Counted from the first letter of the stretch, positions 32 to 34,738 are shown. The stretch: 40,908 nucleotides of DNA from Kipferlia bialata (GCA_003568945.1 BDIP01000032.1:1-40908); one strand, 5' to 3'. Notes: generated by a model from the letters alone, not told the origin. Made by a program: numbers and translations.

Positions 32-3000
32 GCTTCTTGCCTTCAATGCCACCTACGGGTGTGAGGTTGGAATCGATGTCGGCATTGAGCTCTTTGCCAT
101 GCACGGCATGAAGCCTGTCAGGTATTGTATGTATATATATATATACGTATATGCATATGAGTATGGTAGTGTATTACAGGATATATTGAGCTCTTTGCCA
201 TGCACGGCATGAAGCCGGTCAGGTATTGCTTGTATGTATGTTGCGGAATACATATGTATTATTGTTATCATGTAAGTGGATACTCACACACATAACAATG
301 TTAACATAAATAGTGATAAATCTACCTTCGTTCATTCCTGACCCCCAGGGATGCTCAGACCTCTGCCGACCTGGAGCTCGAGTGTCTGCTATGCTCATCT
401 AGGTACCAGGGTACATGTATAGTTGTATTCATTGCAGGTGTAAATGTATATGAAGATACATAGTAGCAGCTATTTGACATCTTGCTATGCTACATTGTAT
501 TTATCCCTCAGAATCACTGTGTTAATCATTATTGTTAGGGTATCTACTCTATACTAGCGGATAGCGCTCCAATCATACTATTTCAGCACATCTCTGACCC
601 CAGGGCATATGTGTTTGTCATCACTGTGAGTGACCTTGTCAGGACAGTCTATGCATGGGTCGGGAGTGAGGCCAGGTATTGCATGTTGCAATACATTACT
701 GTATTGCTTATTATATACTCTTGTCTGGCTGTTCTGCCTCCATCCTCAGTCTCTCTCTCTCTCTCTCTCTCTACACCCTTATACCAAGGGGCGAGTCTGC
801 CTGTGCTGCCTCCATCCTCAGTATCTCTCTCTCTCTCTCTCTCTCTACACCCTTATACCAAGGGGTGAGTCTGCCTGTGCTGCCTCCATCCTCAGTGTCC
901 AGACAGCGGCATGGCTCAAGGACACATACGGAGAGAAGGTATATACATTGATACACTCACACACATACATATAGTAGTGTATATATCAACTGATATATGT
1001 ATATTATACATATTAGTGTCCAGACAGCAGCATGGCTCAAGGACACATACGGGGAGAAGGTACACATGGTGTATATATACACACTGTTTACATTCCCTAG
1101 CAGGGACCATCGTCAATACATCTGTATATACCTAACCTCCCAGGTTGTGCAGCGTGTGGAGAGGGAGGGCAGTGATATACTGATACATACAATGGTATAC
1201 GAGTCTCTTCTATATATATCCGATGTCTAACCCAGGCTGCGCAGCGTGTGGAGAGGGAGGGCTGCGATATACTAATACACATCAAACACTCTAGTATGAT
1301 ATATGAGTCTATTCTATGTATATCTCTAACCCCCCCAGGTTGTGCAGCGTGTGGAGAGGGAGGGCAGTGAGAAGGACGCATTCCTCAGCCACATCGGACC
1401 CATCGTCGTCATGGAGGTGTATATAGATATATAAGGGCATAGATATATATGTGTGTGTATATATTCACATATATATATATACATATATACGATGTATATA
1501 TATACTTGTATATATATATATATATATATTAGAAGGACGCATTCCTCAGCCACATCGGACCCATCGTGGTCATGGAGGTATATATAGATATATATGGGCA
1601 TATATGTATATATGTGGGTATATATATTCGTATATATATATATATATACATATATAGGATGTATGTTTATATATATATATATATACGACTATATATGAGA
1701 AGGACGCATTCCTCAGCCACATCGGACCCATCGTTGTTATGGAGGTATATATAGTTATATTTATCCATGTGTATGTTAGTGTATACATAGTATATATATA
1801 TATATATTGCATTCCTCAGGACCCATCGTTGTTATGGAGGTGGGTGGTAGACATGCCTATATAAGTACATCTCTTGGATGTAATATTATATGTGTGCATA
1901 TATTCTAGTATTCACTGATGCTCAGGAGGACTGCCACGTGCCCTGTGACACCAATGTCCTAGTTATATACCAGATCATTCATATACGTTCATATATATAT
2001 TCCCCCCACCCCAGGAGGACTGCCACGTGCCCTGTGACACCAATGTCCTTGCCAGGGACCCCTCTAAGCCTAAGCCAAAGACCAAGACAGAGAGGAAGAA
2101 GGCACTGCAGGGTAAGTGTCCTGATAGCTCATATATTGTATGAGACTTGCCATATATCTGTATACTATTGGTTTCACTGAGATGCCTTCATTCACAAACT
2201 CAAGAAGGCCCTGCAGGGTACGTGTTATGTAGTGTTAACCATAGTATTGTATCCCAGCATATGTATACCATATGGTGTATGGTATGATGTTGTTGCATTT
2301 TCACATTTCCTGTGCTAACCCCCAGAGGAGGCCGGTGGACTTAGCCATGACGTTCTATTGTAGTATTGATTATTGTAGTATTTATTATCAATATTCCATA
2401 TTGTATACTTACACCAGAGGAGGCCGGAGGTCTGAGGCGTGTTGTATCCAACACCACCTCTGTCCAGATATACCACATATCCAAGGGGATCGATACAGAC
2501 TTCCCAACAGTGGCCAGGTACCTAGTTAGTTGTATAGACTAGAGTTTTTAGTTTCTACGTATATGATATAAGTAATATCTGCTGATATTCCTCAACCCCG
2601 AACTGCCCTCCTTCCTGGCCTCCCTACCCATATAATGTGATATATGCATATACATATATAAGGAAGATGAACTTCCCACTGTTGCTATATAGTCATATCT
2701 CATCAGACTTCATCTCATCCCCCAGACTGCCCTCCTTCCTGGCCTCCCTGCCCCCTCTGCTCATACCCACGGGGACAGACGCAGGTCGGTTATGTATATT
2801 ATATATATATATATATAAGATATATATGTATATACGGTATACACTCCTGCCCCTCTGCTCATACCCACGGGGACAGACGCAGGTACAGATATATATATAA
2901 ATATGTATATGATATATATATATGTATATATATATACGATATACATGTCTATCCCTCTGTTGATACCCACGGGGATATACGCAGGTACAGATATATGTAT

Positions 3001-6000
3001 ATATATGGTATTTATATATATATCATACGATATCCATATATATCCCTCTGTTCATACCGACGAGAACAGACGCAGGTGGATATGTATATCTGTATGCGAG
3101 TGCATATTTAGCTGTGTGTAGTGTGAGCATTTACTATTCTGCCGTTATCTCTTACCCCTAGACGATGAGCCCACCTACTCCGATGTCAACCCCGAAGACT
3201 ATGTGCTCTCTCTCTCTCCCTCTCTCTCTCTCTCTGTCTCTTCCTCTGACTCTAACCCTAGATGACGAGCCCACCTACTCCGATGTCAACCCCGAGGACT
3301 ATGTGTTCAGACTGGAGGAGGAGGATGGGGGGGAGGACGGGGCCGAGGAGGATATTGTCCAGGTATACTTCAAAGAGAACTGAATTCCATTTATACAGTT
3401 TACATATTTATGTATTTACATATTTATATTTATATATTGATGTATTTGTGTTATATATTTCTTCCCTAACCCCCCAGCGCCAGTGGAGTGGTGTGTATGT
3501 GGTGCATGTCCATATCCCATCAGTAGAAAGATACACATATATGTATATTATACCTATCCCCCCCCAGCGCCACACCCCAGCCACCCACCCACAAATGTTT
3601 ATATTTGCGTGTCTTACATCCAGCGCCAGTGGAGTGGTGTGTATGTGGTGCATGTCCACACACCTGCCACAGAGACAGAGGGGGAGAGGCACGATGTGTA
3701 TGAGTACACACCACAGGTATGGAGTGTCTGGCTCTGCATAGATGTTTTTATATATATGATATTATGTTCTTTGTATATATATGTCCCCCTCACCCCAGGT
3801 CAACCCCATTGTCCATGTCATATTCACATTCAAAGTGATACTTCATGTTTGTATGTGTTTGTGTTCCGTCTGATACTGACCCCAGGTCAACCCCCGTACC
3901 TTTACCATGTATATATATATATATATATATATATATCACCCCAGGTCAACCCCCTTGTCCACGTGGCCAGGTGGAGTGAGAGGGCAGCTGCCAGGTATGG
4001 ATGTACTCTAGTGATACATGCTTCTTTGTACTTCTTCTATGGTAAGTATGGGTAAGTATTGTAATGTCTTCTGTGTACCCCATGACGGTGTATATCCCTA
4101 ACCCCAGGGACCTGTGTGTGCAGCTCAAGGGCAAGCACAACGCAAACCACATCATGCTGGGTATGTAGTTATATACCATATTCATTGGAATCTTGATCAT
4201 TCTCACCATGGACAGTATACTTATCATAATATGTGCTGTTTCCTCCCACCCCAGACTTCGACAACCCGGGCACAGACTACACAGCCGCAACTGCAATGTG
4301 AGTGACAGTGAGTTGAGAGTATTATACTTTTTGTCACCTCCTTTTGCTCAAACCCTGTTTCTGCCCTTTTGATACCTGTTATCCAGCACTATATCTCTTC
4401 ATGTGGCTCTTATATATACTCATTCCAGGTACGATGCCATTCTGTCTGTGGATCCCTATGCCGTTGAGTACCTCTCTCTGTCTCTCTTCTGTTCTCCTTC
4501 AGTCCTCTAGGCAGACCATTCCCATGCCTGGATGCACTCAACGGAGTCTGGGAGGTACGGATAGATGTATGTATATATTAATGACATATGTATTATATAT
4601 TTCATATATACATTGTAATACTGAACGAATGTACTTACTTAATGCTAGTAAGCATTGGCTATTTTATTGCACTCAATGGAGTGTGGGAGGTATGCGATAG
4701 TTTCTATATACATATATGAAAGTATATTGGTATATATACAGAGAGATGGTACCAGTGACTAACCCCCCAGGTCATCGAGGCCAGGGAGAATATATCACTA
4801 GTAAATAATCATGACATATGACTGTGCATGTGCTCATGTATTTGTATTGACTCACCCCCCAGGTCATCGAGGCCAGGGAGAACACCGACAACATCGACAT
4901 TGCATTTGGAGCAGAGAGGTGGGAAGATAATCTTGTTATTATCATTCTTGACTTCTTCTGACTCTGTGTTGACTTCCTCTGACTCTCTAGGGGCATGATG
5001 GAGGGTGATGTCTCAGACGAAGTGTGGGTGTTCAGAGAGAAGACAGAGGCAGAGGCAGAGGGACAGGAGGAGGTATGTTATGTGTAAATTATTATAAATA
5101 AGTATATATATATATACAGAGAGAGAGAGAGAGAGAGAGAGAAGACAGAGGCAGAGGCAGAGGGACAGGAGGATGTATGGTGGATTCATATGATATATGC
5201 ACTGTTTCTTATATGTATTATATATATTCATACGTATATTGTATACTAAGTGTACTTACTCCAGCGTGGCTTTGTGGCCCCTGTGCATGCTAACAGACTG
5301 GAGGTGCCAGAGACAGAGGCAGAGGAGGGGGACGAGTACCCAGCCACAAGGTGTGTGTATATAGAGTGGGTAGTATGATTATATGTATGTATATATATAT
5401 ATGCACATGTGATATAGATGTATCAGAGGCCGAGGAGGGGGACGAGTACCCAGCTACTTGGTACACTCTCTATATGTACCATAGTGGTGATAGTTATTCT
5501 TTGTGTCATAGTATTGCAATATATATACACTGTATCCCCTCACCCCCAGGCCCATGTCCCAGTCTGACACTATTTTTTTAATATATATACACATATACTT
5601 ATGATTCTTTTATATACTTGATACATCCTAACCCCCAGACCCATGTCCCAGTCTGACCTCCACCCCGATGTCGTCACTAATATATATATATATATTTATA
5701 TGTATATATATATATATTCACTGCATTCTAACCCCAGACCCATGTCCCAGTCTGACATTATATTTTAATAAGTATTCATCCATATATACTTATAAGTCCA
5801 TGTATACTTGACATATACACTGCATCCTAACCCCCAGACCCATGTCCCAGTCCGACCTAAATGCATCTTCAAATATCAAATATAATATATATATATATAT
5901 TTATTAGTTGTATATACTTGATATGTACACTACATCCTAACCCCAGGCCCATGTCCCAGTCCGACCTCCACCCAGATATTAACACTTATTAATCCTTCTA

Positions 6001-7485
6001 TTATATATACTGTAGATGTACATATATATATACACTGCATTCTAACCCAAGGCCCATGTCCCAGTCCGACCTCCACCCCGATGTCGTGGCATTTGTACTC
6101 CACGGAGACACATGCTTTGTGTGGAGCGGAAGGTGTGTTATTTGAATATTGTGATATATGTTAATTGGATAGTGAGTTACTGGAATATAGATAGTCATTC
6201 CTCTCACCCCAGGTTCTCCCCCATGGCCCTCAGGAGTGCTGGAAAGAGACTCGCTGAGGTGGGTTGTATATAGATAATATCATTTATCATTACTATATAG
6301 CTTGGGCCACAGTTATCTCTGTTGTATGTGATATTCATCTCCCAAATGTGGTATCGTATCATGTTGTTTACCCCCGAGGCAACCTACCGTGACACGGGTT
6401 GTCCTTTCTATGTTGTATACAATCACATATGTATTTGTGTTTGCATGTATTCATATGCGTATATATATACTCTTATCCCCCAGGCCACCTACCACGACAG
6501 AGATGGCCTCGACATAGTACCATATACATATTGTTATATATATAATTGTACTTGTATTACATGTGTATCTATCTTATCCCCCAGGCCACCTACCGGGACA
6601 GGGATGGCCTGGATCTTGTCTTCACCAACCAGATGATCGAGGGAATTGAGTTTAGGTATGTATAGTCTGAATGATTTACTCAGTATTCGTATACACGAGG
6701 ATTCGTCTCTGATTCCACTCACCCCAGGTCCCTCTTCTCTGACTGGGGCTCTGGTTACGGAGCAGCTCTCGATGAGGTATGGAGATATTACAAATGGGTA
6801 TTGATAATGCATAAATGTAGTGTTTCTATTGAAACCCCCCTCACCCCCAGTACATCACCAAGAGTAGTGGAAGTGTGTATATACATGTGTAGCTTATGTC
6901 TATGTCATTAGTGTAATTATGTATTCCTATGCCTCATCCCCAGTCCATCACCCAGAGAGAGAAGTGCAAGACACACGACATCACTGAGGTATGTAGTATA
7001 TTGACAGCTGGTGTTTGCAGTGACCAGTATTATTATAAGTATCATAAGTAATATTCCTCTATCTCAGACAAATCCCCTAAGTATATCTCGTGACCCTTCC
7101 GGTATATTATTACTATACAACTTAGATATTGTATACAGTATTCTAATGCCCCGGGAGACCACCTCCACTAGTCTTCACTAGTGTGTATTCATATATATAT
7201 ATGTGTGTGTGTATGTGTGTGTGTATGTATATAGTATACACTCCTCTCATACCCCAGGAGGATGAGGATGTGACCACCATTAGCCCTGAGGGCAAGGCAG
7301 CCACACTGGCAGAGGGGGACATGACGTGGACAGGTATGTGAATGTATGGTATATATGTGTGTATATAGTATTATACTCTGCCACACTGGAAGAAGGGGAC
7401 ATGACATGGGCAGGTACGACTTGTATATGTATGATATACATCATATATATATATTCATGTTGATGTATATAAAAATATAAATACA

Positions 7486-7519
<34 letters not shown>

Positions 7520-10500
7520 CTGTAACACTGGCAGAGGGGGACATGACGTGGAACGGTACGACTACTGCATATATATGATATACAACATTTTTATATTCAT
7601 GTTGATGTATATGTATATATAAATATATGTATTCATTTTGTATATATTTATTTATGTATATATATATATGCACTCCCACACTGGCAGAGGGGGACATGAC
7701 ATGGAACGGTACGTGTAATGTGTATAGTTGTATTCATGATGACTATCTTTTGTTTGAGATACTATCTGAACAGGCGTTGTGGCATCTTGTATTCTTTATA
7801 GTTGCCACTTTCCTCTCTCATTCCAGGCGTTGACATCTCGTGGTACAGTCAGTACCCCCCTGCCATACCCTGCCCAGCACCAGCGGAGTTGGAGGTATAT
7901 ATATGTACACATAGATATTCAATGGAGATTATCACACTAGCCTCTGACAATTTGTCCACTCTCACCCCCCAGACTGACTACTTCATACCCCCATATATTG
8001 TATACAATACGTATACAACACATATGTATACTTGCCCTTGTCTAGTACATATCTACTGTCCCCCTCCCACCCCCAGACTGACTCCTTCATACCCCCAAAG
8101 GTGTTCCACGCACATGACGACCGGTACGCCAATACATATACAATAGTGGGAATTAACCTACTAGTATATTTCCACCTGTTCAGACGACATATAACATATA
8201 GACCACCCCCTCTCTCAATTATATGTATATATTTATATTATACATATATATACCGAAAGGTGTTCCACGCACATGAAGACCGGTACGGCTGCTGCATATA
8301 CATATATAGTTATGAACCTCTACCCACTGGTTCATATTCATTCAAGTATGTCTTGTACTTGGATTCCACTTACATCAGGTATGAGCTAGTACACAACCCG
8401 AGAGGACATAATGATTGTATACCCTATATGATATTCTAATTAGTGTGTACCTCACCCCAGCTATGAGCTGGTGCACACCCCCGAGGACGGGTGCTACCAC
8501 TTCTACAGCACAGACTGTGTCATGGCACTGGTCGAGGGAGGTATTCAGTGTATGATATACATACATATATATATATATATATTGTATATAGTATATAGTA
8601 TATAGTGTATATATTATTGATGTGTACCACTTCTACAGCACAGACTGTGTCATGGCACTGGTCGAGGGAGGTGAGTATTTATAGATATATATAAATATAT
8701 AGTATACCACAGTATATATTATATACTGTGGTATATGTAATAGTGTACCACTTCTACAGCACAGACTGTGTCATGGCACTGGTGGAGGGAGGTATGGTTG
8801 AGTATATACGTATAGACATACATATAGTTATATCTGATTCTCACCCCCAGACGGTGCGTACACCGTACATGCCTGTCACTGATATATATTTGTATTGTGT
8901 ATGTATACCCATATATGAATCCCCCCACCCCAAGATGGTGCCTATACTGTACATGCCTGTCGGTGATACATCTATCTATTTATATATGTATATAGTGTAT
9001 GTATACCCATATATGAATACCCCTCACCCCCAGACGGTGCCTACACCGTGCATGCCTGGACCGGTAGGCACAGCAGCCCACTGTCCAAGCTGTCATTCTA
9101 CAAGGTGAGTATACTCATTGATATATATGGATGGATACCTACATACATATTAATATAGACATATGAGTTGATGATATATAATACAAATTTTTTGTGTGTA
9201 TGTCTATTCCTCACCCCCAGGACCTCCTTCTCTGTGTTCTTTCCATGTAATGACTGTGTTTCCTAGTAATATATATATTGATATGTGTTTCTTACCACAG
9301 GACCTCCTCCCCCGCCTCAAGGCCCTGGCCACCCAGCAGGGATACCCCAATGTGGACATTGTGCACACAGAGGAGGTATAATGTATTGATTANNNNNNNN
9401 NNNNNNNNNNNNNNNNNNNNNNNNNNNNNNNNNNNNNNNNNNNNNNNNNNNNNNNNNNNNNNATGTATATGTATATACTATACTGTATTGTAAGGGATAC
9501 CCCAATGTGGACATTGTACACACAGAGGAGGTATATTATAGTAATATATAGTATGACACAGCATAATATATATATATATACTATTTGTCGTGTTAGCAGG
9601 GATACCCCAATGTGGACATTGTGCACACAGAGGAGGTATGATCAAAATCATATACATTAATCGTGAAGGTATATATGTATATATACACTATACTGCATTG
9701 TGAGGGATACCCAAATGTGGACATTGTACACACAGAGGATGTATGATCTACAGTATAATATATGCAGTATATATATGTGTGTGTGTGCGTGTGTGTGTGT
9801 GTGTGTGTTATACTACATCATTAGTATACCCCAATGTGAGGTATTTATATGCATTGATTGTATATATCATGATGACTGCATTGTCGAGGGTATCCCTGTG
9901 TGTACAGGAGGTGTTAAACAACACTATTATGCATATATATTTAGGATGAATATGTGCATTATTGTGTCTAACCCCCAGGGTGCGGAGACCCACGAGTTTG
10001 CCAGGGTGTTCAACTACAGATGCGTGTTCCACCTAGGTACGTATAGATATGTACTTACTGTTCAGTACCTATTGGTTATCTTTGACATACGCCATTCCAG
10101 AGACAAGTGTATCACATTTATGTGTATATTCTAACCCTGTCCACACATGATTTACATGTGTATCGTATGTTATTATATATTCACTAACCCTGTCAGGTGG
10201 CAAGTCCCACCGCTTCTCCTCCTTTGACTATGACTCCATCAATGGGACAGAGGACATGCCATACGAGGTGGGTATGTTGTATGGTGTATGTAGAGATATG
10301 TGAGTGTATATGAACAGCCAATGTGCTGCACTATATATATATTTATATATACTCTTGTATATATGTGTATAGATACCTGCTAACGCTCAGAACACCTCTG
10401 CCCCCTCCCTTGACACTGACATTCTCTCTCTCTCTCTCTATCTCTCTCCATCCATTGTGTGTAGCATTTTAACCTTAGAACACCTCTGCCCCCTCTCTGG

Positions 10501-11415
10501 ACACTGACATTGTCAATGAGCTGCACTCCAGCCAGGACATGATAGACGTCGTGGTGCAGAGGTATGGGTTGTATCACTTTCATGTACATTTTCTCGATAT
10601 ATATGCTTATCTGTATGATTCTTATTATGTATAAAAAATAAAAGTATTTATGTATAAATATACTTCTAACCCTTCCAGGTTTGGACTCCTCCAGTCCAGA
10701 CTGGACACTGTCTCATTCATAGTATATATACATAGTGAATATCTATGTCATGTATATATACTAATTACTAGGTTTGGTCTGCTCCAGTCCAGACTGGACA
10801 CTGTTTCATTCATAGTATATATACATAGTGTATATGTCCTGTATATATATACTAATTACTAGGTTTGGTCTGCTCCAGTCCAGACTGGACACTGTGTCTG
10901 CCCTTGTCAACAGCCATGCACAGAGCCAGTTCTTCATGGAGGGGGGAGCTAGGTATATAGTATAGTATATAATGTATGTATGTATTGACATGTATATATG
11001 TATATATATAGATTATTATATGTAAATAGTGTCTGCCCTTGTCAACAGCCACAGTTCTTCATGGAGGGAGGGGCTAGGTATCTTATATGTATACTTCATC
11101 AGTATAGTATACATTGTCATAAATGCATATTTACTGTACTCTTATACACTCTCACCCCAGACTGTACAAGGTGTGCCTCACCCCCTATGCCCCCCCTGCC
11201 TGTAGACAGATGCACCCCCCTGCATTTTGCATGCTGGACTGTAGGTTTGTATGCATTATATATACACACACACATATGTGTGTGTAGTAGTTATGGTGTT
11301 TCTCACCCTCAGGCATGTGTACCTGCTTGTCTGTGCCCACAAGGTGTACGTCTGGGCAGGAGAGCACAGCACAGTCATCGATAACGAGGTACCATACATC
11401 ATATATATAAACAAG

Positions 11416-11448
<33 letters not shown>

Positions 11449-14383
11449 GCAAAGTGTACATACCACTATTGACAACGAGGGGGGGAATGAGAATATTTCT
11501 TGTCTCTTCTGAAGTTTATATCCATGACCTATCTCTCCCTATATATATGTATATATATCAGCACTTACCTCCAGTACGCAGCACTGTATGCCTCTGAGCT
11601 GTCTGTGCATGACACTGTGCATGAGCAGTATACACACACACACATATATATATATATACATATGGATATATATATATATATACTAACATTAGTATGCCGC
11701 CCTCTATGCCTCTGAGCTCTCAGTGCATGACACTGTGCATGAGCAGCAGGGTGAGACAGACGCACAGGAGGAGAGGGAGAGGGAGATTGTACACCTCGAC
11801 GAGGGTTCAGAGGTACACAAATATACTTACTTATGTAGTAATATATGTGGATTCTTGTCTCCTATTATTAGTATAGACCCTTATCCCCAGGTCCCCCACT
11901 TTGTGGACTGCCTTGGTGGCAGGATGCCCTACAATGGGGTCCAGAGTGTGAGGATACCATCCACGGCACCCACAGCATCACTCACAGTGGCACCCACACT
12001 AGGTATATATATACTCATATATATTTGTTTGCGTGAATATATGTATGTCACATGTAAAATGTCTTTGCATAGTGACTCTATTCACTAACCCCCAGTCCAT
12101 CTCTCTCAGCGGTATCAGTATTAGCAGATATATATACATCGTGACTAACCCCTAGCCCATCTGCAGTGGCTGCACCGCACTGGGTGTCTGGAGGGACCAG
12201 TCCTGGAGGCATATGCTAGGACATGCCTGAACAGGTATATACATTGTATAGTATATATATATATATGATATAGTATAGTGTATATTGAACAGTCTGGAGG
12301 GACCTGTCCTGGAGGCATACGCTAGGACATGCCTGAACAGGTATATACATATATACATATACTGACCATACCTGACTTCTCTTGACCTCTCTTGACCACC
12401 AGGGATGACACCGATAGAGAGGACATCCTGGGCACATCTGAGCTGAGGAGGACAAGGGTGGACGAGCTGGATATGAGGTATATATGTTCTATTTGCTATA
12501 ATAATGCGAATATTTATTCTATGAGGAGTACATAGCTACATACATAGCTGGTAAATATTTGTGAATTACTATTTAGTTTCTGTACTATTCAGTGTGTGTA
12601 TTGGCCAATATTTGTAGCATCCCTCCTTGTGTTATGACCCCTCCCTCTTACCACTAGGCTTGTGTCTCTTGACAGATGTATATATATGGTGTAAGGAATA
12701 ACGAAGATCTGACTGTCAGCTGGCTTGTCTCTTTACAGATCTACATGGATTAATTACGACGATCAATATCTAACTGTCAGGCTTGTCTCTGAGACCCGTG
12801 TTCTGTCCTCTGTGGAGGATGACATCACCCTGCTCGCAATGTGAGTGATATGTATGTTATATGTATGTATATTATATATATAGCCACTGAGTATATGATA
12901 CTGATACTGATACTGATGATGGCATCACCCTACTCGCAATGTGAGTAAGAGTGACTATATATAAATGCATGTACCTTTGTATGCCCTCTCACCCCCAGGT
13001 GCCTCTCCCCCCCACCCATCACCCTACCTAGGGTATACACTGTATCTAGGGCAGGGAGGGTCACCATATGCCTGATGCCTCACCAGGTGACACATTGCAT
13101 TGTACATATCTTTAAGTATCCGATGATCTGAGTAGTGTGATGTTTCTATGACAATCACGTATGTACATTCCAAAGACACATGCATATTAACATGCTCTAA
13201 CCCCCAGGCCTCCCTTGAGTCCAGTGATGCTGCCTGTGTCGTGGTGGATGACCTGTCCATGGTGCACCTCTGGATCAGAGAGGTGTGTGCATGATAGATA
13301 TATGCATTGATAGATAGATAGATATATAGATAGGTAGATAAATATATAGATATGGTATAGTATAGTATTGGATGACCTGTCCATGGTGCACCTGTGGATT
13401 AGGGAGGTGTGTGGATGTATACTTCCGTATTCATTGACGCATGATAGAAATGGTGTATCATGTATTGTTTACTTTATATGTACTCACCCCCATGGTGTGT
13501 CCGAGTCCACTGATTATGTATCAGATATATACATATATACATATTCTATATATATTGTGTATATTCCCCCTCACCCCAGGGTGTGCCCGACTCCACTGAA
13601 TATATATATGATATATATCCTATACATATATACATTATGTGTGTCTCTCTTACCCCAGGGTGTGTCCGAGTCCACTGATTATATATATGATGTATTATAT
13701 ATACTATACAAATTATATATATATACATTCACCCCTCTCTCTTACCCCCAGGGCGTGTCCGACTCTACTGTCAGAAGGGCAAGGGCATTCATACTGGCCC
13801 TGCTCAGAAACCAGGGCCGTGTTGACCTTGTTGATGTTGTGCACAGCATGGATGAGCCCCTGTCCTACGCTGCCCTGCTGCCAGGGTATACATATACATA
13901 TACATATATATATATGTATGAATGCGTGTGTGTGTGTATTCATGTATTAGTACATATATAGTGGTGTTGTCCTATAAGTGTTCTCCTCACCCCCAGCTGG
14001 GCCAGAGTCCCACTCCTTGACGAGCCAGAGCCAGAGCACAACTCGAAGGTATAAACAACCACAAATTATCGCACTTTATGTATCTATTTCTATTGTATAG
14101 TGCCGTCAAGCCTTACATATATATATGTGTGTGTGTATCCTCTTATATAGTGTCGTTAATGTCATTCCTTACCCCCAGGCCGTCATGCTTCGGGAGGGCC
14201 TCATCCGCTATGTGGCCAAGAAGAGAATCACAGACCTCAGAAGGGCATACGACAGTGCCGAGAGCGAGGTAACATGTCGCACTACAATTCACATTATATA
14301 CTGATTTGAGTGATAATGGTATGTCCATCCAAGTCTTTCTAGGATGACATACGACACTGCGGAGAGCGAGGTAACTAATATGG

Positions 14384-14419
<36 letters not shown>

Positions 14420-14465
14420 GTACCATATATCTTGTACCAGGAGGAGGCCTCTGACCTGATGACCC

Positions 14466-14505
<40 letters not shown>

Positions 14506-14587
14506 GTATCGGTTCTCTCTCTCTCTCTCTCTCTCTCTCTATGTATCGTTTCTCACTCTTCAGGAGGAGGCCTCCGACCTGATGCTG

Positions 14588-14629
<42 letters not shown>

Positions 14630-15061
14630 GTACCACATACCTTACACTAGGAGGAGGCCTCTGATCTGATGCGTGACCTCCTTGAGTTCAGAGCAGACTT
14701 TGTGGCAGACTACTGTCAGACAAACACAGACGGCACACCTCTGGCAGGTATATCCTTAATCCAATGAATCCACACCATTCCAATAATGACAGTGACCTGT
14801 TCCTATTTCTACTCACTCACAGGTGCTGGTGAGCGTGGTGTGTTCCCAGACGCCTACTCACCCACTGTACACACACCCTCTACCCTGAGGGAGGGAGAGG
14901 AGAGGGAGAGTGTAGACAGTGAGGGAGAGTACTACGAGGGAGAGGCAGACGGTGAGGGAGAGGGAGAGGGAGAGGGAGAGGGAGAGGATGTGTACTATGA
15001 GGAGGGGGCTGCACCAGGGGGGGTCATTATATGCTCAGATACAGAGTCTGAGGACTACTAG
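32..15061 (+). CDS. Large multi-exon gelsolin/villin/flightless-superfamily actin-binding protein (5'-truncated by the window), about six divergent gelsolin repeats plus an acidic tail
   Basis: Hand-spliced exons join in phase almost throughout (ambiguous near 4430-4510 and 7070). 604-675 [23 protein letters not shown]; 863-938 [18 protein letters not shown]; 1339-1416 [19 protein letters not shown]; 6052-6132 [24 protein letters not shown]; 8461-8540 [11 protein letters not shown]; 9979-10036 [11 protein letters not shown]; 11313-11388 [19 protein letters not shown]; 11693-11812 then 11891 [19 protein letters not shown]; 13208-13282 [22 protein letters not shown]. These match gelsolin-repeat motifs (L.S.D.F/YIL...IY.W.G..S, E..AAA....QL, EG.E...F...LGG). 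Stop TAG at 15059-15061. Confidence 0.85.
1130..1845 (+). repeat. Exon 1339-1416 flanked by two upstream acceptor echoes and three downstream donor echoes
   Basis: Upstream copies start at 1144 and 1236. Downstream copies end ...ATGGAG|GT near 1577, 1744 and 1839. Confidence 0.95.
5520..6132 (+). repeat. Tandem array of five acceptor-type exon echoes followed by the true exon (unit about 90-110 bp)
   Basis: AG acceptors end at 5549, 5638, 5737, 5837 and 5946, each followed by (A/G)CCCATGTCCCAGTCYGAC. The full exon is at 6052-6132. Confidence 0.95.
8703..8735. repeat. Perfect 16-bp inverted repeat with a 1-nt loop between two donor echoes
   Basis: TATACCACAGTATATA-T-TATATACTGTGGTATA. Confidence 0.9.
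9393..9462. other. Assembly gap (70 N) inside an array of donor echoes of exon 9301-9375
   Basis: Run of N; echo copies follow at about 9493, 9596, 9703 and 9825. Confidence 0.99.
14387..14627 (+). repeat. (CT)n microsatellite cluster interleaved with acceptor echoes GAGGAGGCCTCYGAYCTGATG
   Basis: Four CT tracts; echoes start at 14440 and 14564, true exon at 14651. Confidence 0.9.
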
Positions 15062-15351: not shown

Positions 15352-18300
15352 ATGCCTGCAGAGTGTTTGGGTGTTAGCAGTACACCTACTATAGATGGTG
15401 TAGCACCAGAAGAGAGAATGGAGACGGGGGGAGAAGGGGGGGAGTGTGGGAGAGAGGATACCTCAGCACATCCCTCTGGCACTGATTCTCACTCTCTCTC
15501 GCTGTCTGATCCTCCATCTAACACTACTCTTCTCATCGAGGGACAGGTAGAGTCTGTGGCAGATGTTATGGTGGAGGCAGCTGGGAAGTGTGGGGGTGAG
15601 ACAGTGAACTGTGCTGCTCAGAGAGAGAGAGAGACAGTGGTGGAGGAGGGGGAGGTTGTGAAGTCCACCTATGCTCAAGACTCTGGTGTGCAGGAGACAC
15701 TTGGAGAGCTTGTAGGCAATGTATCTCTGGCCAGTGAGACAATGAGGTAAGATACCACGCACACATCTATGCCTCCAACATTATGTCTAATTAGTGTTCC
15801 AATTCCATCTCCGAACCATAATATATCATGTACAATGGATGTCATTCTGCTCAAAGCGTATAATGATGGCCTCATATTTATAACATCAGAGTGACTTGGG
15901 GCCCAAGTCACTTGGCAGACGAGGCTATTGTGTTCTTTCCCTCCTCATTGCTCACCCTTCAGTTATGTACGTGAGTTCATATGCAAACCTGACCCTGAGA
16001 GTGACTTGGGGACACAGTCCCGTGACCTATTCGCTGGACTCGGCCCACTGTGCAAGGATACACTAGGTATCCAAATGTATCATCCACCGATATATACTTC
16101 ACAGCTCCAGTGTTTTCAGAAACATATCATGTAGAATACCATCTGGATACCTATTCACTCCCCCACCCCAGCCCTCTCCGACACGTGGTTCTCCTTTCTG
16201 CTCGATGCAGTCAAGACACTGCCTCTGAGTGCAGACACTCTCTATGGTATACTGATACCACTACGGGTTGTGGCAGGTTGGGCTTCACAATTGTAGTATA
16301 GTGCTAACTCTGTACTACTAGGACTAGTAGTATAGATTATTGAATTCTGACAGTAACATGTAATTCCTTCTGACTACTCCTATATATCAACATATACTCA
16401 TCACTATGTCCATCGCTCCCTCCAGACAACCTGACATGTGAGTCTGCCCCCCTCCTCCGAGAGATGTGCACTCTACTCATCAAGGGGGCAGAGACACTGG
16501 TACAGGAGCCATACAACTTTGATGTGGTGGCTAGGTATGTATATAAGAACTATATAGTGTATAGATACTTAGCATATGTACATATATGTATAGAATATCA
16601 ACTTTGACGGTATGGCTAGGTATGTAGAGAGACAGGTCGTATATACATATATGATATATGTATATATATGGGTGTTACGTGGTACTTAGCATAATGCTCT
16701 AAGCATATGTGTTCATATATATGTCTACAACTCACACAGGAGTGCAACCACCCTGATGTGGTGGCCAGATATGTTATGAAACAGTATAACTACACTATAC
16801 ATATGATATTTACTCAGTATTACATTCAACTTTGATGTACCAGCGTATGTGTATATATTCTAGACATATAGATATCCATGTAAATGAATATGTACACTGT
16901 ATCCAAGATATAGTATATATCTTACACAGGATTGCCACGACTCTGACTCTGCTGCTGTTCGATGACGGCATATCTCAACCAGGTAGAGTGTAGTCACATT
17001 GTTAAGACTAAACATTCATAGTTATTTGAATATTGACTATATTCTATCAGTAGCATGGCAGGGACTCTACTCAGGGAGAAAGTGCTGAATATCTGTTTGT
17101 ATTGTTGCTATTTTGCCCCCAGCTGACAGTCTTACTTCAGATCTCAGTGCTGACAAGAGGGCATGTCGCCAGTACCTCATAGACGAAGGTATAGATTCTA
17201 CACACTGTTGCACTAGAAGAGTCCCGTCCCTAACCACATCCAGTGTATCATACATTTGCATGCATGTAACTGATTCAGGCCTGCTCTTTTGCATACGGAA
17301 ACTCTTGTGTGCCCTTATGGACGAGATAGAGTACGAGGAGGAGTTAGACCCGATGAGTGGGATGGACGGGGTGGAAGGAGAAGTAGAATCGGAGACTGAC
17401 AGTGAGGGGGATGCTGAGTCAGAGAGTGACTCTGACTGTGAGTGCAAGGAAGAGGGAGAGGAGTGTTCAGGAGAAGACCACTCCGACGAGGATCTGGAGG
17501 ATGATCCCTCTGTGCCACTAGACTACAGAGCACGCCAGGATGCAACCTACGCTCTCGGCGAGATGGTCGTTTTGATACTGGTAGGTGTGTGGATGTTATT
17601 GAGAAACATTCTGCTGTTGATTCGCAGTACGTAAAATCGACGTCCTAACCTACCTAGAATTTGCTGACACCAGCGGAGGATCTTGTTTACTCCATTGACC
17701 ATGTGAGGGACCTCGTTGGCTTCTTTGTGGAGTACTCCCTGTTGACTGAGGTCATTTACCACCAGTTGTTGGCCCCGCTGACTGTTCAAGGTACATATTG
17801 AAGAGTATACTTAGTTTTGTATATAATATATATTCAGTTTATATACTCATAGTATATGTATTAGTATTAGGTCTAAGGCGTAAGTACGTTTGCCACTTGA
17901 TAGTGCTATCTTCGTGGTAACATGGATTGAACTGAGGGTGATGTTTGAGACACATTCTGACCCTCTATTACTATTACTGACCTTTAGACAAGACATGTGA
18001 GCTCCTCTTTGAGTCCGGTATCCTGTCCGCCCTCACTGATATTGCAGAGGATGATGAGGAGGTGGGAGGGCTACTGATTGCCTAATGTGACAACACAATC
18101 TAACTATACTGGTGTCACTATCCGAAATTTCGGCTCTTCTAACTGCAGCATGAGTGCATGTTACAGTGGCTGACAAGGAGGCTCCTCACTAGTGGTGAGT
18201 CAGAGAGAATATGTCGATTATCACACGACCTACTGGACAAGTAATATTAGTGGAATACAGTTCGAAATCCCATTACAGCATCCTATCAATAGTAATACTA

Positions 18301-21181
18301 TATAGAGATACTATTGTAGTATCTCTATATATGCAGTGTGTTGTATCCAATATGCCTTCTCCTATTTGACAATTCAGAGACATCTACCGCCAACCACTCC
18401 CTGCGTCCTGGCTTCCTACCCCTCCTCAACGTCATACTCCCTATGCCTGACTATATGGAGGGGCACGGAGATGCATACCGGCTGCTGCTACATGGCTCAC
18501 CTCTCCTCCAATTTGACAGAGATAGAGCAGCCACCCTGCGGTGCCTGAGAGTTGCACTAGAGAGAGGTATACACCATCATAGCACGTATATATCAATTCC
18601 TGACCCTCCCATTGTATTGTGTGGTAATAGTTATCTCTGAAAGATCCACTCACTCGTTAGACACCGTCACCGATGTCGGGGATCTGGTGACGGGGCCCAA
18701 GTCCCTTCCCGCACTCATATACCCACTGCTCAAAGTGAAGTATGAGGAGCAAGACATATCCCTGGCGACGCAGGTATGGAGTCATAGCATACAATCTGCA
18801 AGGACTATCGGATACCCATATTAGGTCATGCCTCTCTAACTGAATATGTATGGTCCAGTATTGTATTTCTCTCTCCTTTCTATCTCCCTTTGCGGTCAAT
18901 CATCAATGTATTTGTATATCCCTCTAATACTCAGATGCTAGGAGAAGCCATGTTTGTGCTGTGGGTGCTCGCAGACAAGGGTATGTGACACGCTATGTAT
19001 ACTGACTATATTGTGATACGTAATCACATGTGTGTTATGTGATGCGTATATACAATGTATTTTTCAACCCCAGTGGAATCACCTGAGCAGGAAGTGTCAA
19101 TCCTGCGTCCAGCCTTAGAGCCCCTCTGTCAGTCTTTCTTAGACTGCAAGGTGAGTATCAGTATCAGTATATATAGAAAGATACTGATACTAATACTGAG
19201 GTGACCAAGTCTGTCCAGAAGGGTGGGGGCGTCATCTCACTCCTGTTGCTGCGCACTGTACTGCGGGTCCAGGGCAGAGGTACAAATATGTATACACACA
19301 CATAGATATATATATATACATATATATGAACATGTGTGTGTCAGGATCGTCCACTCTTGGTGCCCTCTATTATTGATTCTTACATATTCTCATTCAACTA
19401 CCAGTGTGGAAGCGTAATGACCCTCACTCCCAGCCCCATTTTCTCAACCAGAGTACATTCCCCAAGTCCACAAGACTGTCATCAAGGTATAGTTATATTG
19501 ATCCTCACGGGAGTCACATCGAGAATTTCACACAATACACCCTTGTTGCGATATATCTGGTATAGTATCTATATGTATGTGTATACTATGTCGCCAAACC
19601 CCTCGTTGCCTGTTGACAGTGCTTAATCACCCCAATGACCCTAGATTCTCAACTGGAAGAGGATCCAGAACATACAGTCAATGTGTGCCATGGTGCTCTT
19701 CAACATGGCTGGGGTGGAAGGTGACCCATGGTGATACACAATTACACATATATATACTATATGATGATACAAAATTTACTGTGGTGGAAGGTGTACATGT
19801 AGAGTATAGTGACACATATACATACAGGCCACCGGCAGTGGAAGAAATGAGGTGATATGCAATATTACTGTACCGTTAACTATCCATGAATTGTGCATCC
19901 AACCTCAGAGACTCACTCACCTTCTCGCATGTGTGAAAGCGCCACTGTCCAGAGCCTCACAACATACATCTCTCAGTACTCTGATGTGAGTGGCGTCATG
20001 TTCAAACTCCCAGTCTGGAGGTTGCTCGCTCTCTGGTCAGCAAACCGTACGTCATCATTCAAACTCCATAGTGAAATGTGTATCTACTTCGTACAACACG
20101 GTGTAAAGTTTGACTCTTAGCTGTTGAGTACAGAGGGTTCTCTTTCATAATGGTCTCACCGCAGCTGGGAACGAGAAGCCTCTGACAAAGGGCAAGGTCA
20201 ACACAATGCTCTCCTTCTGTCCCTTCCAGGTTTGTCCTTCTAATGTGATGCTACGTATTGTGTACTACCTTTCAATAGAGTCAGTGGTACACGAGAGCAA
20301 TACAACTTAACGTAAAGAGAGTACAACTTGAAATCACTCGGGATTCTATGTATCTGGATACTTTACCATCATCACAAGTGAATTAGTGTCCAGATTAATG
20401 AGTCAAGTATGCATATATATATTCATAGTCATTCGTATCTTACTCTCTTAGAACGTAAAGCGTATCTCTTATACCAGTACCCTCAGGAGAGGCTGGAGTG
20501 GTACACAGCCAGGGTCTCCAAGTACAAGAGGGCTCATTCGCTAGAGGCCATCTACAAGTGCACCACCAACAGGTACAGGACAGGATATTCTTTTCCTTAG
20601 CCTATACGTATGAACTTAGTAACTATCTAAGAGGATCGATACCTAAGATCACGATTGCGTTCATTCATTTCATGCTATATCTCACCTGTTAGTGATGGAG
20701 TGACCAGTTCCACAGCAGGGTGTGTAATTGATTGGCCTGTAATGTAATGTATACTCCACCATCTTTCTTTCCATACTCAATATAGCGAGGGAGTGACCGG
20801 TGCCACATCAGACCACAGAGGCCCAGAGAGTGTTAAGCTCATACTGGCAGAGATACACCAGCTGGCACAGATACTGGAGGCCTTCTTCAAGGTGCGAACG
20901 GCCATCTGAACACACATTCTGAATACACATTCTGAGATGCTTACTATTGTGACTCAATATGCATCAACGGTGAAAATGTCGTAATTACCCACCCTGTATA
21001 CCAATTATCACCAACCCAGTGGAAGGGGGCAGAACCAAAGAAGCAGGAGTCCCCTTCAGAGGAAAGGCCAGAGACAGTCACTTCCTCAACCGACAAGTCC
21101 AGTGACCAGTCTATCACACTCATCCGCATCCTCTACATCTGCATAGCCTTCTGTGTGTATTCCTATGCCGTATGGTCATAG
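15352..21181 (+). CDS. Multi-exon hypothetical protein, probably alpha-helical/ARM-like, with acidic low-complexity segments and a C-terminal hydrophobic tail; paralog of 26375..31762
   Basis: ATG at 15352, first exon ends ...ETMR|gtaag at 15745. Internal exons read LVQEPYNFDVVAR, LLFESGILSALTDIAE, LPALIYPLLKV..., MLGEAMFVLWVLADK, PVWRLLALWSAN. Last exon from 21020 ends ITLIRILYICIAFCVYSYAVWS-TAG (21179-21181). The fold assignment is inference. Confidence 0.7.
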
Positions 21182-21791: not shown

Positions 21792-24700
21792 ATGGGAGAT
21801 GAGTATGAGTATACTCTGCCTATGAGGTATCTCCTAGGGGGTGTGGTGGAACTGGTGGCTGGGCTGCTCGCACTCTATGCCCTGTGTTGTCAGGTACGGA
21901 CACTTACTTCTGATACCCACACACTCCTATTTGGATACAGCAATAGCCATGGGTATGTATCCTGTAACACTCATGTCCCCTCACTCCTCTAGAGTTAGTG
22001 AATGTCTATGGTACTCTCTCCCCAGACCCAGCAGAAGAGGGTCACTTATCCCTATAGAGTATATTAAAACTGTACATATAATTACTATATTGTATTCATA
22101 ACACTAGGTCTCTCCCCCCAGAAGGGTGGGTTTACTTATACCATACTATAACTGCAATGTATTCATAACACTATGTCTCTCTCATAGTACTATATCCTCT
22201 CTCACATCAGACCCAGCAGAAGAGGAGGCCCTCACTCATACTGTAATGTACTTCAATATAACACACTATTATGGTACCTATATGGGTATACGGTGTATGA
22301 GTCTAACATCAGACCCAGCAGAAGATGCGACTCACTCACACAGTATTGAAGTATGTATATAGTGCTATTGTATCACTGATAGAGTACACATATAAGAGTG
22401 TCTCTCTCACCCCAGACCCAGCAGAAGAGGAGGCTGAAGAAGGGCCCCTGCTCTTGGCACAGCAAGAGAGCCAGACAAGAAGTGACACGGTCACAGGTAC
22501 TGACTCTCTCTCTCTGTCTCAATATATGTATATATATCTTGGGTCTGCATTTGCACAGCAAGAGAGCCAGACAAGAAGTGACGAGGTCACAGGTACTGAA
22601 GCACTATCTCTCTCTCTCTTTCTTTCTCTGCCGCTATATATGTATACATATCTTGAATCTGCTCCTGGAACAGCGAGAGAGCCAGACAGGGGGTAGTGAC
22701 AAGATGACGCCTACTGGTCTCAGTCTCTCTCTTCCTCTTTCTACATGTGAATTCCTAGGTAACAGGTATTGAGCAGGAGGTGACACGGTCACATGTATGG
22801 ACCCCCCCTCTCTCTAGACATATTTTCGTCTCAATACACTGTATACTGTATACAGAGAGCCTCTATATTATATAGACTATATGTCCTCTCACATCCAGCT
22901 CATGCTACTTACAGCAGTCCTCGGCCATGCAGTCAGGTACTCGTTCTTCTCTCTCCCTCTCTCTCTTTATCTCTCCCTCTCTTCCTCTACCCCCTCATTG
23001 TCGGCCATGCAGTCAGGTGTGTGTTAATATCTCTCTCTTCCTCTCTCTTTCTCTATCCCCTTAGTGCCAGGGTTGCTTAGGTTACTCTCTCACTATCTCT
23101 CCCTCTCCACCCATACTACCAGGACTGAGGTTCGTCTCTCTCTCTCTCCCCATCTACACCCTTATTCTCAGAACTGCCTGGGCCTTTGCGATGCCTCTGT
23201 CCAATGACCAACTGCCATTCCTGCCAAAACTGGCCATGAACAGGTACTCTATGACTCATAAATTATGAGTATGTATACAATCACCATTATTATCCAGCAT
23301 ATATACAATAAATATCCTATACATACTATATACACTGGCTACGCACAGGTACTATAATAGAATGTATATGTGTTATCTAACCTGACTCCCATATCAATCG
23401 GCATATTATAATTATACACTTTCCCATATATAGTATATAGTATATATATATTCTATATACACTGTATGGTGTAACTCTCTCACCCTAGACTGTCCACCCT
23501 GCTGCTGTTCCTGTCCTTCAGCATGTACATCAACCAGTGTCTGCTGGTGTCATCAAGGTAAATGCATGCAACTACTACATTTTTGTGAATATATGAGTGA
23601 GGTATATTAGTATAGTCTAAAGATAATCTAAGATTATCTTTAGACTAAAGATTAGACATCAACCAGTGTTTGCTGGACCAGCAGACTCTGCTGGTATCAA
23701 GGTACATGAATGTAACGATACATATTGACATATATATATCAACAAATACACGTTAGCAGTTAGTAACTATAATAGTTACTAACTATTCTAAAGTGTGGGT
23801 TGTCTCTTCCACCCACCCCAGCTATGTCATGTCAGAGAGGTCACTTCCTAGACACATCATCAATGCAGTCACATGGGTTGTGGCATGCACATCAGGTACA
23901 TATATGTCACCATGCATCATATTCATCCATGTGTATAGTACGTCTCTACCCTCAGGAGCCATCATTGTGTACTATGTCACCATGTAGTATATGCATACAT
24001 GTATATATACATATATATCTACGTAGTTATGGTAGTCTCTACCCTCAGGAGCCATCATGGTGTACTATGTCACCATGTGGCTATTGTGCACTGACGATGC
24101 TGTAGCAAGAGAGCTGCCATTCACCAAGTATGACCTGGTAAGTGTGTGTGTGTGTCTCTCTCTCTCTTTCTCTCTTTCTCTCTCTCACTCTACTTCGTAT
24201 CTTACAATACACACTACTTCAATTCAGTACTATTTCGTGGTATTATGGGTGTTTGTGGCCTATATACCAATCAAATAAAAAAGTCTCTCTTTTCATCCCT
24301 CTAGTACTAACATCCAGTATTACGTCGTCTTTGTCTGGGTGTTTGTGGCCATAATGTTCCTCTTAGCCGGAAGGGCCATCAAAGGGTACGTTTTACGTAA
24401 CGTACAAAGACAATGACTACTAGTCTCTATTCATGAATATCAAGGCTAGAGCCTTATATGTTTTATATGGATATTGTTCACAGGGATATCATAGGGTATG
24501 TAGGCATATATCATTGTATATATCAACCCTATCATTCCAGGCAGCTACAATTGATCATGGTAAGCTGTCTAACTTGTCACTCTCGGTCACTCCCTTACTC
24601 TCTATATCTTACTCCCAGTGAATTTGTATATATATTCAAATACAATTGTGTATATATACGTGCATCTGACTTCCAGGCAGCTTGAGCTGATCATGATCAG

Positions 24701-26087
24701 CTGTCTGCCCCATGTTTCTCTCTCTCTCTATCTCAGCATATACATATGTATCTATATATATTAACACATAATAGCCAATATCTGACTCCCAGGCAGCTGA
24801 TCATGGCTAGCTCTATCGGAGGAACAAAGGTAAGCTATTCTCTGGCATACATACGTAATATGTAATTTATGACCATCGACCAACCTCGTGTATGTTGTTC
24901 TGTTAGTCACTATACACATTCTAACAGATTTCAATTCCCGATAACTCACCTCAGAACGAGAGAGACTTCTCCCCCCTGATCAGACAGCTCAAGGTGGGGA
25001 TGGCAGTCAATTCCTGATGATGATGTAACCTCCTATATATTAGTAATATATAATATAATACAATATAATATAATATAATAATACATCTAATAAATCAAGG
25101 TCTCTTCTGCCATTGGTGCCGTTTGTGCAGTGGGCAGAGGCATCGCATACCTCCTGTGGTCATTCAGAGACAACCCAGGTACTTGTATGTGGACCTCTCA
25201 CTCTCTTCCTGTCTCTCTATGTGTATATATTCATATACATATATAGTGTGTGCACTCACTCCAGATGTATGGAACCTGCCAGAGGGCTGGGACCTCTGTA
25301 TCTCCCTCTCTCTCTATGTATATATATATTCATATATGTATGTATGTCCCCTCACTCCAGATGTATGGAACCTGCCAGAGGGATGGGACCTCTGGGTGTT
25401 CTTCTTCCTACCAGACGTTGTCCCTACAGGTATGAGACTAGTATTTTACCCGTTATGCCATTCCATCACATGCTATGCATCGGACATGACCTCTAATCAG
25501 CTAATTGGGTGATAGTAGCGCTGACTGACCAGTCACCATGTCCAGAACAGTATTACTTATTATTACAACTATATACATTTTTACTTTCCTTCAAAGGATA
25601 GGAAACATCGGAAATGACCTCTACTAACTGTCCAGTCACCATATCCCTCCTTGTGCTCGGCAAGGCCCCATTGACAAAGAACAAGAGAGCAAGGTGGGTG
25701 CTATCTCTACATAGTAATACAGATAGAAGTACTATTGGTATTATTGATGCTATTGTGTTGTCTTAGCAAACTGGGTATTCTATCTACTATTGGGTGGTCC
25801 AGCGGTATTGTTTGTGTTATGATCAAGTACCTCTCTCAATGATTGAGTAATACATTAACCCAGTGGAGTGAGTCTGAGCTCTGGCAAGAACCACATGCCA
25901 CCAGTCATTCCCAATCCCTTGATCACACAGGTGAATATGCTATACATTAGTATATACATGTATTCTGTTATACATACATTTGATCTCCATCGCTGCTTCA
26001 ATGTCAATACCTGTCCTATTCTCTCTCTAATTTGAACAGGGTTCCAGGCCAGTTGCTATGGGTACTGTCCAGGATAGTGTGCTGTGA
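21792..26087 (+). CDS. Multi-exon seven-transmembrane protein, THH1/TOM1/TOM3 (GPR137-like) family candidate
   Basis: ATG at 21792. Spliced hydrophobic segments: YLLGGVVELVAGLLALYALCC; AMNRLSTLLLFLSFSMYINQCLL; IINAVTWVVACTSGAIMVYYVTMWLL; YYVVFVWVFVAIMFLLAGRAIK; QLKVSSAIGAVCAVGRGIAYLLW; WVFFFLPDVVPTVTISLLVL. The last resembles the family's TM7 E/D-x-x-P motif. Last exon 26040-26087 ends TGA. Confidence 0.65.
23613..23647. repeat. Perfect 17-bp inverted repeat with a 1-nt loop (intronic)
   Basis: TAGTCTAAAGATAATCT-A-AGATTATCTTTAGACTA. Confidence 0.95.
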
Positions 26088-32980: not shown

Positions 32981-33014
<34 letters not shown>

Positions 33015-33162
33015 TCTATCTCTGAAGGAGCCCATCTGAGGGTTAGAAACATATACCGAGAGGGACAGAAAGAGGGAGAGAGGAAGAGAGAGAGAGAGAG
33101 ACATATACAGTGTGTCCCTGAAGGAGCCCATCTGAGAGTCAGAAACATATATCAAGAGGGAC

Positions 33163-33206
<44 letters not shown>

Positions 33207-34699: not shown

Positions 34700-34738
<39 letters not shown>

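Follow-up and report, generated by a model that had tools for sequence, protein, structure and literature searches.

Partial exon copies in the introns of a Kipferlia bialata scaffold show an excess of synonymous differences and may descend from other working alleles

In pseudogene and silent-cassette conversion reservoirs, and under concerted evolution, copies that are not translated retain their likeness to a functional gene, and both copies are under coding constraint when tandemly duplicated exons are spliced in a mutually exclusive manner. Short exon duplications beside splice signals also occur in intron gain by tandem genomic duplication. In mouse meiosis, aborted gap repair between homologs followed by end joining was described to give haplotype switches and tandem duplications from homolog-joined breaks, as is proposed here, and fragments set free may become inserted where the homolog is broken, much as is proposed for the copies analyzed below (Lukaszewicz et al., 10.1101/2020.06.23.168138); these events were reported as rare, caught by PCR, found mostly without ATM, and extending over 0.5-2 kb between hotspots. 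At human meiotic hotspots, polymerase-theta end joining after partial re-synthesis was described to leave side-by-side imperfect duplications, again as here, with extended ends joined by microhomology, and the mismatches were ascribed to errors of the polymerase and to template switching rather than to silent differences between alleles (Hinch et al., PMC7615360).

Kipferlia bialata is a free-living fornicate and a relative of Giardia. In a 40,908-nt scaffold of its genome (GCA_003568945.1 BDIP01000032.1:1-40908, hereafter the window), about four in ten introns contained partial copies of an adjacent exon, here termed echoes. In contrast to the mouse events, these are fixed copies, spaced 50-215 nt apart, present in 49 of 128 introns and known from a codon signal alone; unlike at human hotspots, any microhomology at their junctions would be hidden by the diverged flanks. 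Whereas intron gain makes a new donor and a new acceptor, echoes hold an existing splice site within an existing intron. They also differ from silent cassettes, being 13-60-nt half-exons of ordinary genes that lie 100 nt from the exon and whose changes are silent, not diversifying, and from mutually exclusive exons, as no complete copy was present among 89 echoes and RNA used one copy where this was tested. No earlier description of such echoes was recognized by title or opening of the abstract in the literature searched, a coverage that excluded most subscription journals, and the consulted portions of the K. bialata genome report do not mention exon copies (PMC5874029).

An automatic gene parser took echoes as exons and was replaced by hand curation, which resulted in five genes (g1 to g5). 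These comprise 133 exons and 128 introns; all junctions have AG/GT, and none of the reading frames contains an internal stop. Genes g1 (32..15061), g2 (15395..21181), g3 (21792..26087, 15 exons) and g4 (26831..31639) were located on the plus strand, and g5 (40285..32134, 29 exons) on the minus strand. The model of g1, without its 5' end, comprised 47 exons and 1220 aa, three of its junctions being borne out by an RNA contig. This gene was provisionally named gelsolin/villin-like on slender grounds, namely motifs that we take to be gelsolin-like, beside matches to PF00626 (Gelsolin) below cut-off in two of the 19 g1 exons scanned (E 0.02 and 0.25); protein searches with two g1 exons as queries returned no matches, a result of little weight. 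The g4 model corresponded to part of KIPB_000302: its exon 28514-28816 showed 100% identity with P0001 (hypothetical protein KIPB_000302, Kipferlia bialata), and 19 of its 20 exons were found verbatim in this annotated protein. Throughout the curated introns, the donor was GT followed by A or G, and the acceptor was C-rich with a branch-like CTAAC, CTCAC or CTTAC near the AG; the shortest intron modelled had 47 nt (4468-4514).

Echoes were searched by frame-blind Smith-Waterman alignment of each exon with the introns on either side of it; the score threshold was one that approximately 1% of 1,538 non-adjacent exon-intron pairs reached. Among the 99 matches obtained, 89 were anchored at a splice site (≤3 nt from the exon end), including 48 upstream (5') echoes, each formed by an acceptor and the exon start, and 41 downstream (3') echoes, each formed by the exon end and a donor. 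They were distributed as 56 in g1 (26 of 46 introns), 19 in g5 (14 of 28 introns), ten in g3, and three and one, respectively, in the echo-poor g2 and g4. The largest share of an exon covered by any echo was 74%. Copies lay head to tail beside the source exon, with a median spacing between successive copies of 101 nt (IQR 92-118), and formed arrays of up to five members, as in the 5' array of exon 6052-6132 (5550..5977, plus strand), the inner breakpoint being mostly common to the members. Two 3' echoes of exon 8461-8540 (8625..8791, plus strand) showed 0 and 1 difference in 46 nt and a common left junction, with differing donors, both valid. A 70-N gap (9393-9462) lies within the echo array of exon 9301-9375 and may conceal a further copy. 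Echo-bearing introns were twice as long as the others (median 261 vs. 134 nt), and in g1 and g5 their (TA)n tract content was three times higher than in echo-free introns (0.159 vs. 0.052, P = 7e-10; the difference held within each gene); this richness could possibly be a source of breaks or a product of repair.

Ten exons had echoes on both sides (863, 1339, 2015, 2726, 8077, 8461, 10863 and 22416 on the plus strand, 37973 and 35349 on the minus strand), with no excess over expectation (P = 0.22). In nine of them the 5' and 3' halves met within 12 nt (P 0.008-0.018 for absolute lengths, 0.04-0.10 for fractions), and divergence levels of the two halves of the same exon did not co-vary (rho -0.01, n = 10). 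These exons look as if an insert of 189-263 nt with a whole new copy had split the old exon. The 3' echo of exon 10863-10952 (11019..11077, plus strand), which carries a 10-nt deletion, reached within 5 nt of the 5' echoes inside the exon, and was found with the exon on one DNA contig.

An example of an echo was found upstream of exon 36 of g1 (11693..11812, 40 codons, open in the 47-exon model). The 5' echo (11575..11628) copies the first 18 codons of this exon, and its six differences from positions 11693-11746 were all synonymous (TAT>TAC, GCC>GCA twice, CTC>CTG twice and TCA>TCT), as had been pointed out in a first-pass annotation of the window. It is preceded by an acceptor (11559..11574) with a branch-like CTTAC and the ending CCAG, different from the live acceptor in sequence but equally well scoring (PWM 10.3 vs. 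8.2 for the live one), and is separated from the exon by a (CA)n/(TA)n-rich spacer including the live acceptor (11629..11692, with CTAAC at 11683-11687 and TAG at 11690-11692), all on the plus strand. The other echoes named in that annotation were reproduced as well, with all differences synonymous at 8935-8959 (4/4), at 3162-3205, 13371-13406 and 34758-34738 (3/3 each), and at 1015-1059, 10391-10423 and 12292-12340 (2/2 each, the last being a 3' echo of exon 12156-12234, plus strand), together with its counter-examples at 1236 (1/4 synonymous), 7380 (2/4) and 12915 (1/3). In full alignment, the 3' echo of exon 13208-13282 (13360..13406, plus strand) showed five synonymous and two replacement differences. 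The six of six at 11575..11628 is by itself insignificant among 89 echoes, whereas the pooled excess is significant.

For the main pooled count, the 10 unanchored matches were dropped, six inner-end columns were trimmed and repeated differences were counted once. Synonymous differences amounted to 93 of 150 (62%), compared with 30% expected if all changes were neutral and 47% for a neutral echo and a frozen exon (P = 1.1e-4); the latter null takes the echo as neutral and lets the exon admit silent change alone at the same rate, with base-matched expectations. The first-pass annotation had proposed pooled dN/dS, set against such a null, as a check of its claim, and the value obtained was 0.27 (bootstrap over 50 exons 0.17-0.38), with a larger synonymous share than under the null. 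A similar excess was observed with all 99 matches untrimmed and repeats counted once (122/227 vs. 43%, P = 7e-4), against a null matched by trinucleotide (48%, P = 6e-4), when each exon side was represented by a single echo (72/111) and after removal of eight hand-picked echoes (72/128 vs. 46%, P = 0.010). When the frame was shifted by 1 or 2, 21 and 22 of 162 differences, respectively, were synonymous. In 400 simulated runs of the null, the synonymous fraction averaged 0.42 with a maximum of 0.53, against 0.64 observed. Fourfold sites differed in 77 of 373 cases and zerofold sites in 53 of 1460 (ratio 0.18), and divergence reached approximately 20% at silent sites, approximately 4% at replacement sites and at GT/AG, and far higher levels in the intron flanks. 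Where the nearest echo differed and a farther echo equaled the exon, 15 of 25 changes were synonymous (vs. 32%, P = 0.004; trimmed, 11/20, P = 0.017), in a comparison which assumes that the echo adjoining the exon is the youngest, so that such changes should be neutral. With echoes treated as independent, a model with prior silent divergence (~0.12) followed by later decay (~0.035) had the best AIC (440, vs. 485 for the null and 451 for a single ratio). There is thus statistical support, for one scaffold and one isolate, for more constraint than expected on sequence that splicing removes in the introns tested.

This excess was carried by g1 (60/80 synonymous) and g5 (17/26), two of the five genes, while g2 to g4 together showed 16/44 (11/23 in g3, not above the null, and a neutral-like 5/21 in g2 and g4 jointly). 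The claim of the first-pass annotation that echoes differ from their exons mostly at synonymous sites holds for the pooled data, and "all synonymous" overstates the general case. By divergence, 24 of the 89 echoes were identical to their exon, and synonymous differences in the remaining ones were 31/37, 36/50 and 36/75 from least to most diverged. Low-scoring echoes showed 31/56 (vs. 54%), and transversions alone 39/74 (vs. 45%, P = 0.11). Among echoes of one exon, 33 of 57 differences were synonymous, some of which may correspond to exon changes between two duplications.

The splice dinucleotides provided a second, independent sign of constraint. GT was kept in 38 of 41 downstream echoes and AG in 45 of 48 upstream echoes, and this total of 83 intact out of 89 fits the replacement-site rate and lies above the expectation from half the silent rate (P = 0.002). 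Changes were observed in 24-49% of cases at donor positions +3 to +7 and in 23-46% at acceptor positions -3 to -10; mean scores in echo vs. live sites were 6.0 vs. 6.1 for donors and 9.2 vs. 10.7 for acceptors. The next 40 intronic bases showed a mean identity of 62%, compared with 55% for random intron pairs, exceeding 75% in 12 of 89 echoes. After removal of three echoes of exon 9301, whose flanks extend into the N gap and have identities that are artefacts of it, 57 of 86 flanks were within the random range, and flank identity was not correlated with divergence of the exon part (rho -0.11, P = 0.29). Since GT/AG is kept, donor scores are alike and flanks are mostly random, an echo resembles the same exon-intron junction taken from another functional allele. 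Together with the pooled, context-matched, simulated and one-per-side comparisons, these results support the proposal, made in the first-pass annotation, that the divergence largely arose under coding constraint.

In one chromosome lineage with one working copy at a time, at most half of the joint branch length is constrained, so that simple duplication and decay are expected to give a dN/dS of at least 0.5. If the exon converts the echo, the clock merely starts anew, and the ratio should not fall much below that value. Values of 0.18-0.29 would thus require either that both copies worked at once or that selection acted on the echo. Because conversion stays at 0.5 for theta up to 0.2 in a rough calculation and mutually exclusive exons would call for complete copies, alleles on different chromosomes are left as the reading. 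Accordingly, the explanation favored here, to which we give somewhat better than an even chance, is that echoes are pieces of other working alleles, left by break repair from the homologous chromosome combined with end joining.

Under this explanation, each copy would have served as a working exon, on a chromosome of its own, for some of the time since the two separated. A broken end in or near an exon would then copy approximately 100 nt from the homolog through mismatch-tolerant Dmc1, and the extended end, rather than annealing, would be closed by end joining of the polymerase-theta type, leaving a 3' or a 5' echo; alternatively, an allelic patch of ~220 nt with the whole exon might be set into the break, the old halves becoming echoes on both sides. 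Selection would keep only events that leave one complete exon, which would explain why echoes are anchored at splice sites. Unequal exchange between an echo and an exon of different chromosomes could later expand arrays with the same junction and refresh them with working sequence, as suggested by array members with common junctions, and neutral decay would subsequently bring in replacement changes. Meiosis may have brought the homologs together, as may mitosis in a diploid cell. Codon periodicity produced by base-triplet stepping of Dmc1 was considered and rejected by argument, as nothing sets its register to the reading frame.

The repair genes reported for this group are compatible with such a route: NHEJ is described as absent from metamonads, Rad51A as lost and Dmc1 as present in two copies in fornicates, and PolQ, Spo11, Hop2 and Msh2 are listed for K. 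bialata in rows of Supplementary Data 2 (PMC8516963); Dmc1-type residues are reported to aid recombination between divergent sequences (PMC6719624). The K. bialata genome was called diploid from two k-mer peaks, and the same report gives one coverage peak and an assembly size equal to the k-mer estimate (PMC5874029), which argues against high present heterozygosity. In addition, no second allele of three exons within 9840-10960 was found at 85% likeness in assembled DNA contigs, a data type that drops rare variants. The donor alleles, 12% apart at silent sites, must therefore be assumed lost, and flanks mostly at random level, uncorrelated with exon-part divergence, imply that capture of alleles would have to be accompanied by very rapid turnover of introns or by refreshment at a later time. 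Exchange between divergent alleles, one of three options offered in the first-pass annotation, is the best fit to the data, with no second allele in 1.1 kb; what it implies is recombination between homologs and not necessarily sex, since mitotic exchange would suffice. Should the echoes be captured alleles, homolog recombination and past allelic diversity are recorded in countable form within one genome, and an unusual set of repair functions (Dmc1 alone, polymerase theta and no NHEJ) is tied to visible genome architecture. A simple test for any intron-rich genome would then be whether dN/dS between exons and their half-copies in introns is below 0.5.

A bolder form of the allele explanation, which we put forward tentatively as a possibility, is that the introns constitute a dense fossil record of outcrossing. 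Exon breaks would have been patched with ~220 nt of a divergent allele (by Spo11, Dmc1 and polymerase theta, without Rad51A or NHEJ) while the old halves stayed as echoes, and for each exon one homozygous genome would store several alleles that once belonged to a hyperdiverse population with silent divergence near 12%. Sex is stated to be unobserved in Metamonada (PMC8516963), and this form, if true, would count as evidence, drawn from one genome, that a metamonad has sex, and would represent a main engine of intron growth.

An unlikely alternative is a template reservoir, in which old tandem duplicates on the same chromosome convert the exon often, so that replacement mutations in echoes are selected against indirectly. 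Near-identical exon-like parts beside unalignable flanks are in line with it, as are the strongest bias in the least-diverged echoes and the common junctions and mosaic site patterns of array members (168 of 284 informative pairs incompatible in a four-gamete count over nine arrays, a figure of little weight that includes doubtful flank alignments and has no null). Nevertheless, in a rough calculation at steady state, with total conversion set by the silent divergence, the lowest dN/dS was 0.5 for theta up to 0.2 and 0.3 at theta 0.5, where the alleles themselves are divergent and capture of alleles applies. Conversion, also among the options of the first-pass annotation, is thus insufficient alone to bring dN/dS below 0.5 unless theta exceeds approximately 0.2, and later exchange among copies is likely.

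Equally improbable in our view is ordinary tandem duplication over a splice junction followed by neutral decay, with the synonymous excess due to unmodelled effects such as silent sites changing faster in exons, the exon being duplicated serially, or small sample size. The cis head-to-tail position is as expected for simple tandem duplication, g2 to g4 and the most diverged echoes fit the null, and transversions alone were insignificant; on the other hand, a dN/dS of at least 0.5 was found only in g2 to g4, and neutral expectations were exceeded in the pooled, context-matched, simulated, one-per-exon and nearest-echo comparisons. GC3 was 0.59-0.69 in the genes against AT-rich introns, suggesting constrained silent sites, and constraint on silent sites would raise the null instead of lowering it. 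Moreover, the retention of GT/AG is independent of codons and exceeds that expected at the neutral decay rate.

Contigs from two runs were compared with positions 9840-10960, a 1.1-kb part of the window outside the echo at 11575-11628. DNA run X1 is possibly the source sample, and hence tests the assembly and not the sample; X2 is a presumed RNA run, whose GT-AG joints behave like spliced RNA. In X1, exon and echoes occurred on single records with an even depth of 370-430 and no other letters, there was no joint skipping an echo, and 0.98 of the sampled words of 9500-14300 were contained. The share of words of 9500-14300 in X2 (0.18) equaled the exon-only expectation (0.18) and was not used as evidence. 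A 4,043-nt X2 contig had GT-AG joints at 10036-10197, 10267-10479 and 10561-10863, and so passed over the 5' echo of exon 10479-10561 (10391..10426, plus strand) and the two 5' echoes of exon 10863-10952 (10679-10714 and 10772-10807, within 10679..10807, plus strand), which have a common inner breakpoint and lie in cis in DNA contigs; it consisted of exon bases only, with no other letters. In all three introns, two of them with echoes, splicing joined the old donor to the acceptor that belongs to the complete exon, and no new intron was formed. In the spliced RNA of 10268-10862, the nearer acceptors at 10391, 10679 and 10772 were bypassed for that of the complete exon, which suggests exon definition in this short-intron protist or decay of other products. 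A search of metagenome contigs with an exact 24-nt pattern from exon 36 of g1 gave no matches and yielded no other isolate.

It is very unlikely that echoes are translated, be it in minor or stage-specific transcripts, through non-canonical splicing or following programmed rearrangement of the DNA. Their splice-site scores are like those of real sites, and a donor-like GT directly follows the echo at 11575-11628, yet the resulting cassette would be 53 nt long and out of frame, nearly all echoes have a single splice site, the RNA contig skips those it crosses, and the DNA contigs of 9840-10960 show no joint that omits them. Use of echoes in mRNA, a further option of the first-pass annotation, is unsupported for the main transcript in the region covered. 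Both copies constrained on one chromosome and splice sites kept would also be expected if echoes were truncated whole-exon duplicates, formerly mutually exclusive and both translated; with exon cover of at most 74% and 0 of 89 complete, where approximately half should be complete if half of their history had been functional, this origin appears highly improbable. An assembly artefact with two haplotypes set in tandem, for which the short-read assembly of a reported diploid (PMC5874029), the spacing of ~100 nt and the N gap within one array might speak, is hardly credible given separate read contigs that carry echo and exon together at even depth, the presence of nearly all sampled words in X1 and arrays of up to five different echoes, and within the 1.1 kb compared the echoes are not collapsed haplotypes, the outcome that the first-pass annotation had named as fatal to its claim.

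On the practical side, the well-scoring splice sites of echoes will mislead gene predictors and short-read assemblers in K. bialata. By eye, the two echo-poor genes g2 and g4 look paralogous (LFESGILSAL and LFDDGILSAL; MCAMVLFNM and MCATLLFNM), and both are also TA-poor. The last codons of g2 and its stop region recur in its presumed 3' untranslated region (21148-21176 vs. 21270-21298), indicating that echoes are not confined to introns.
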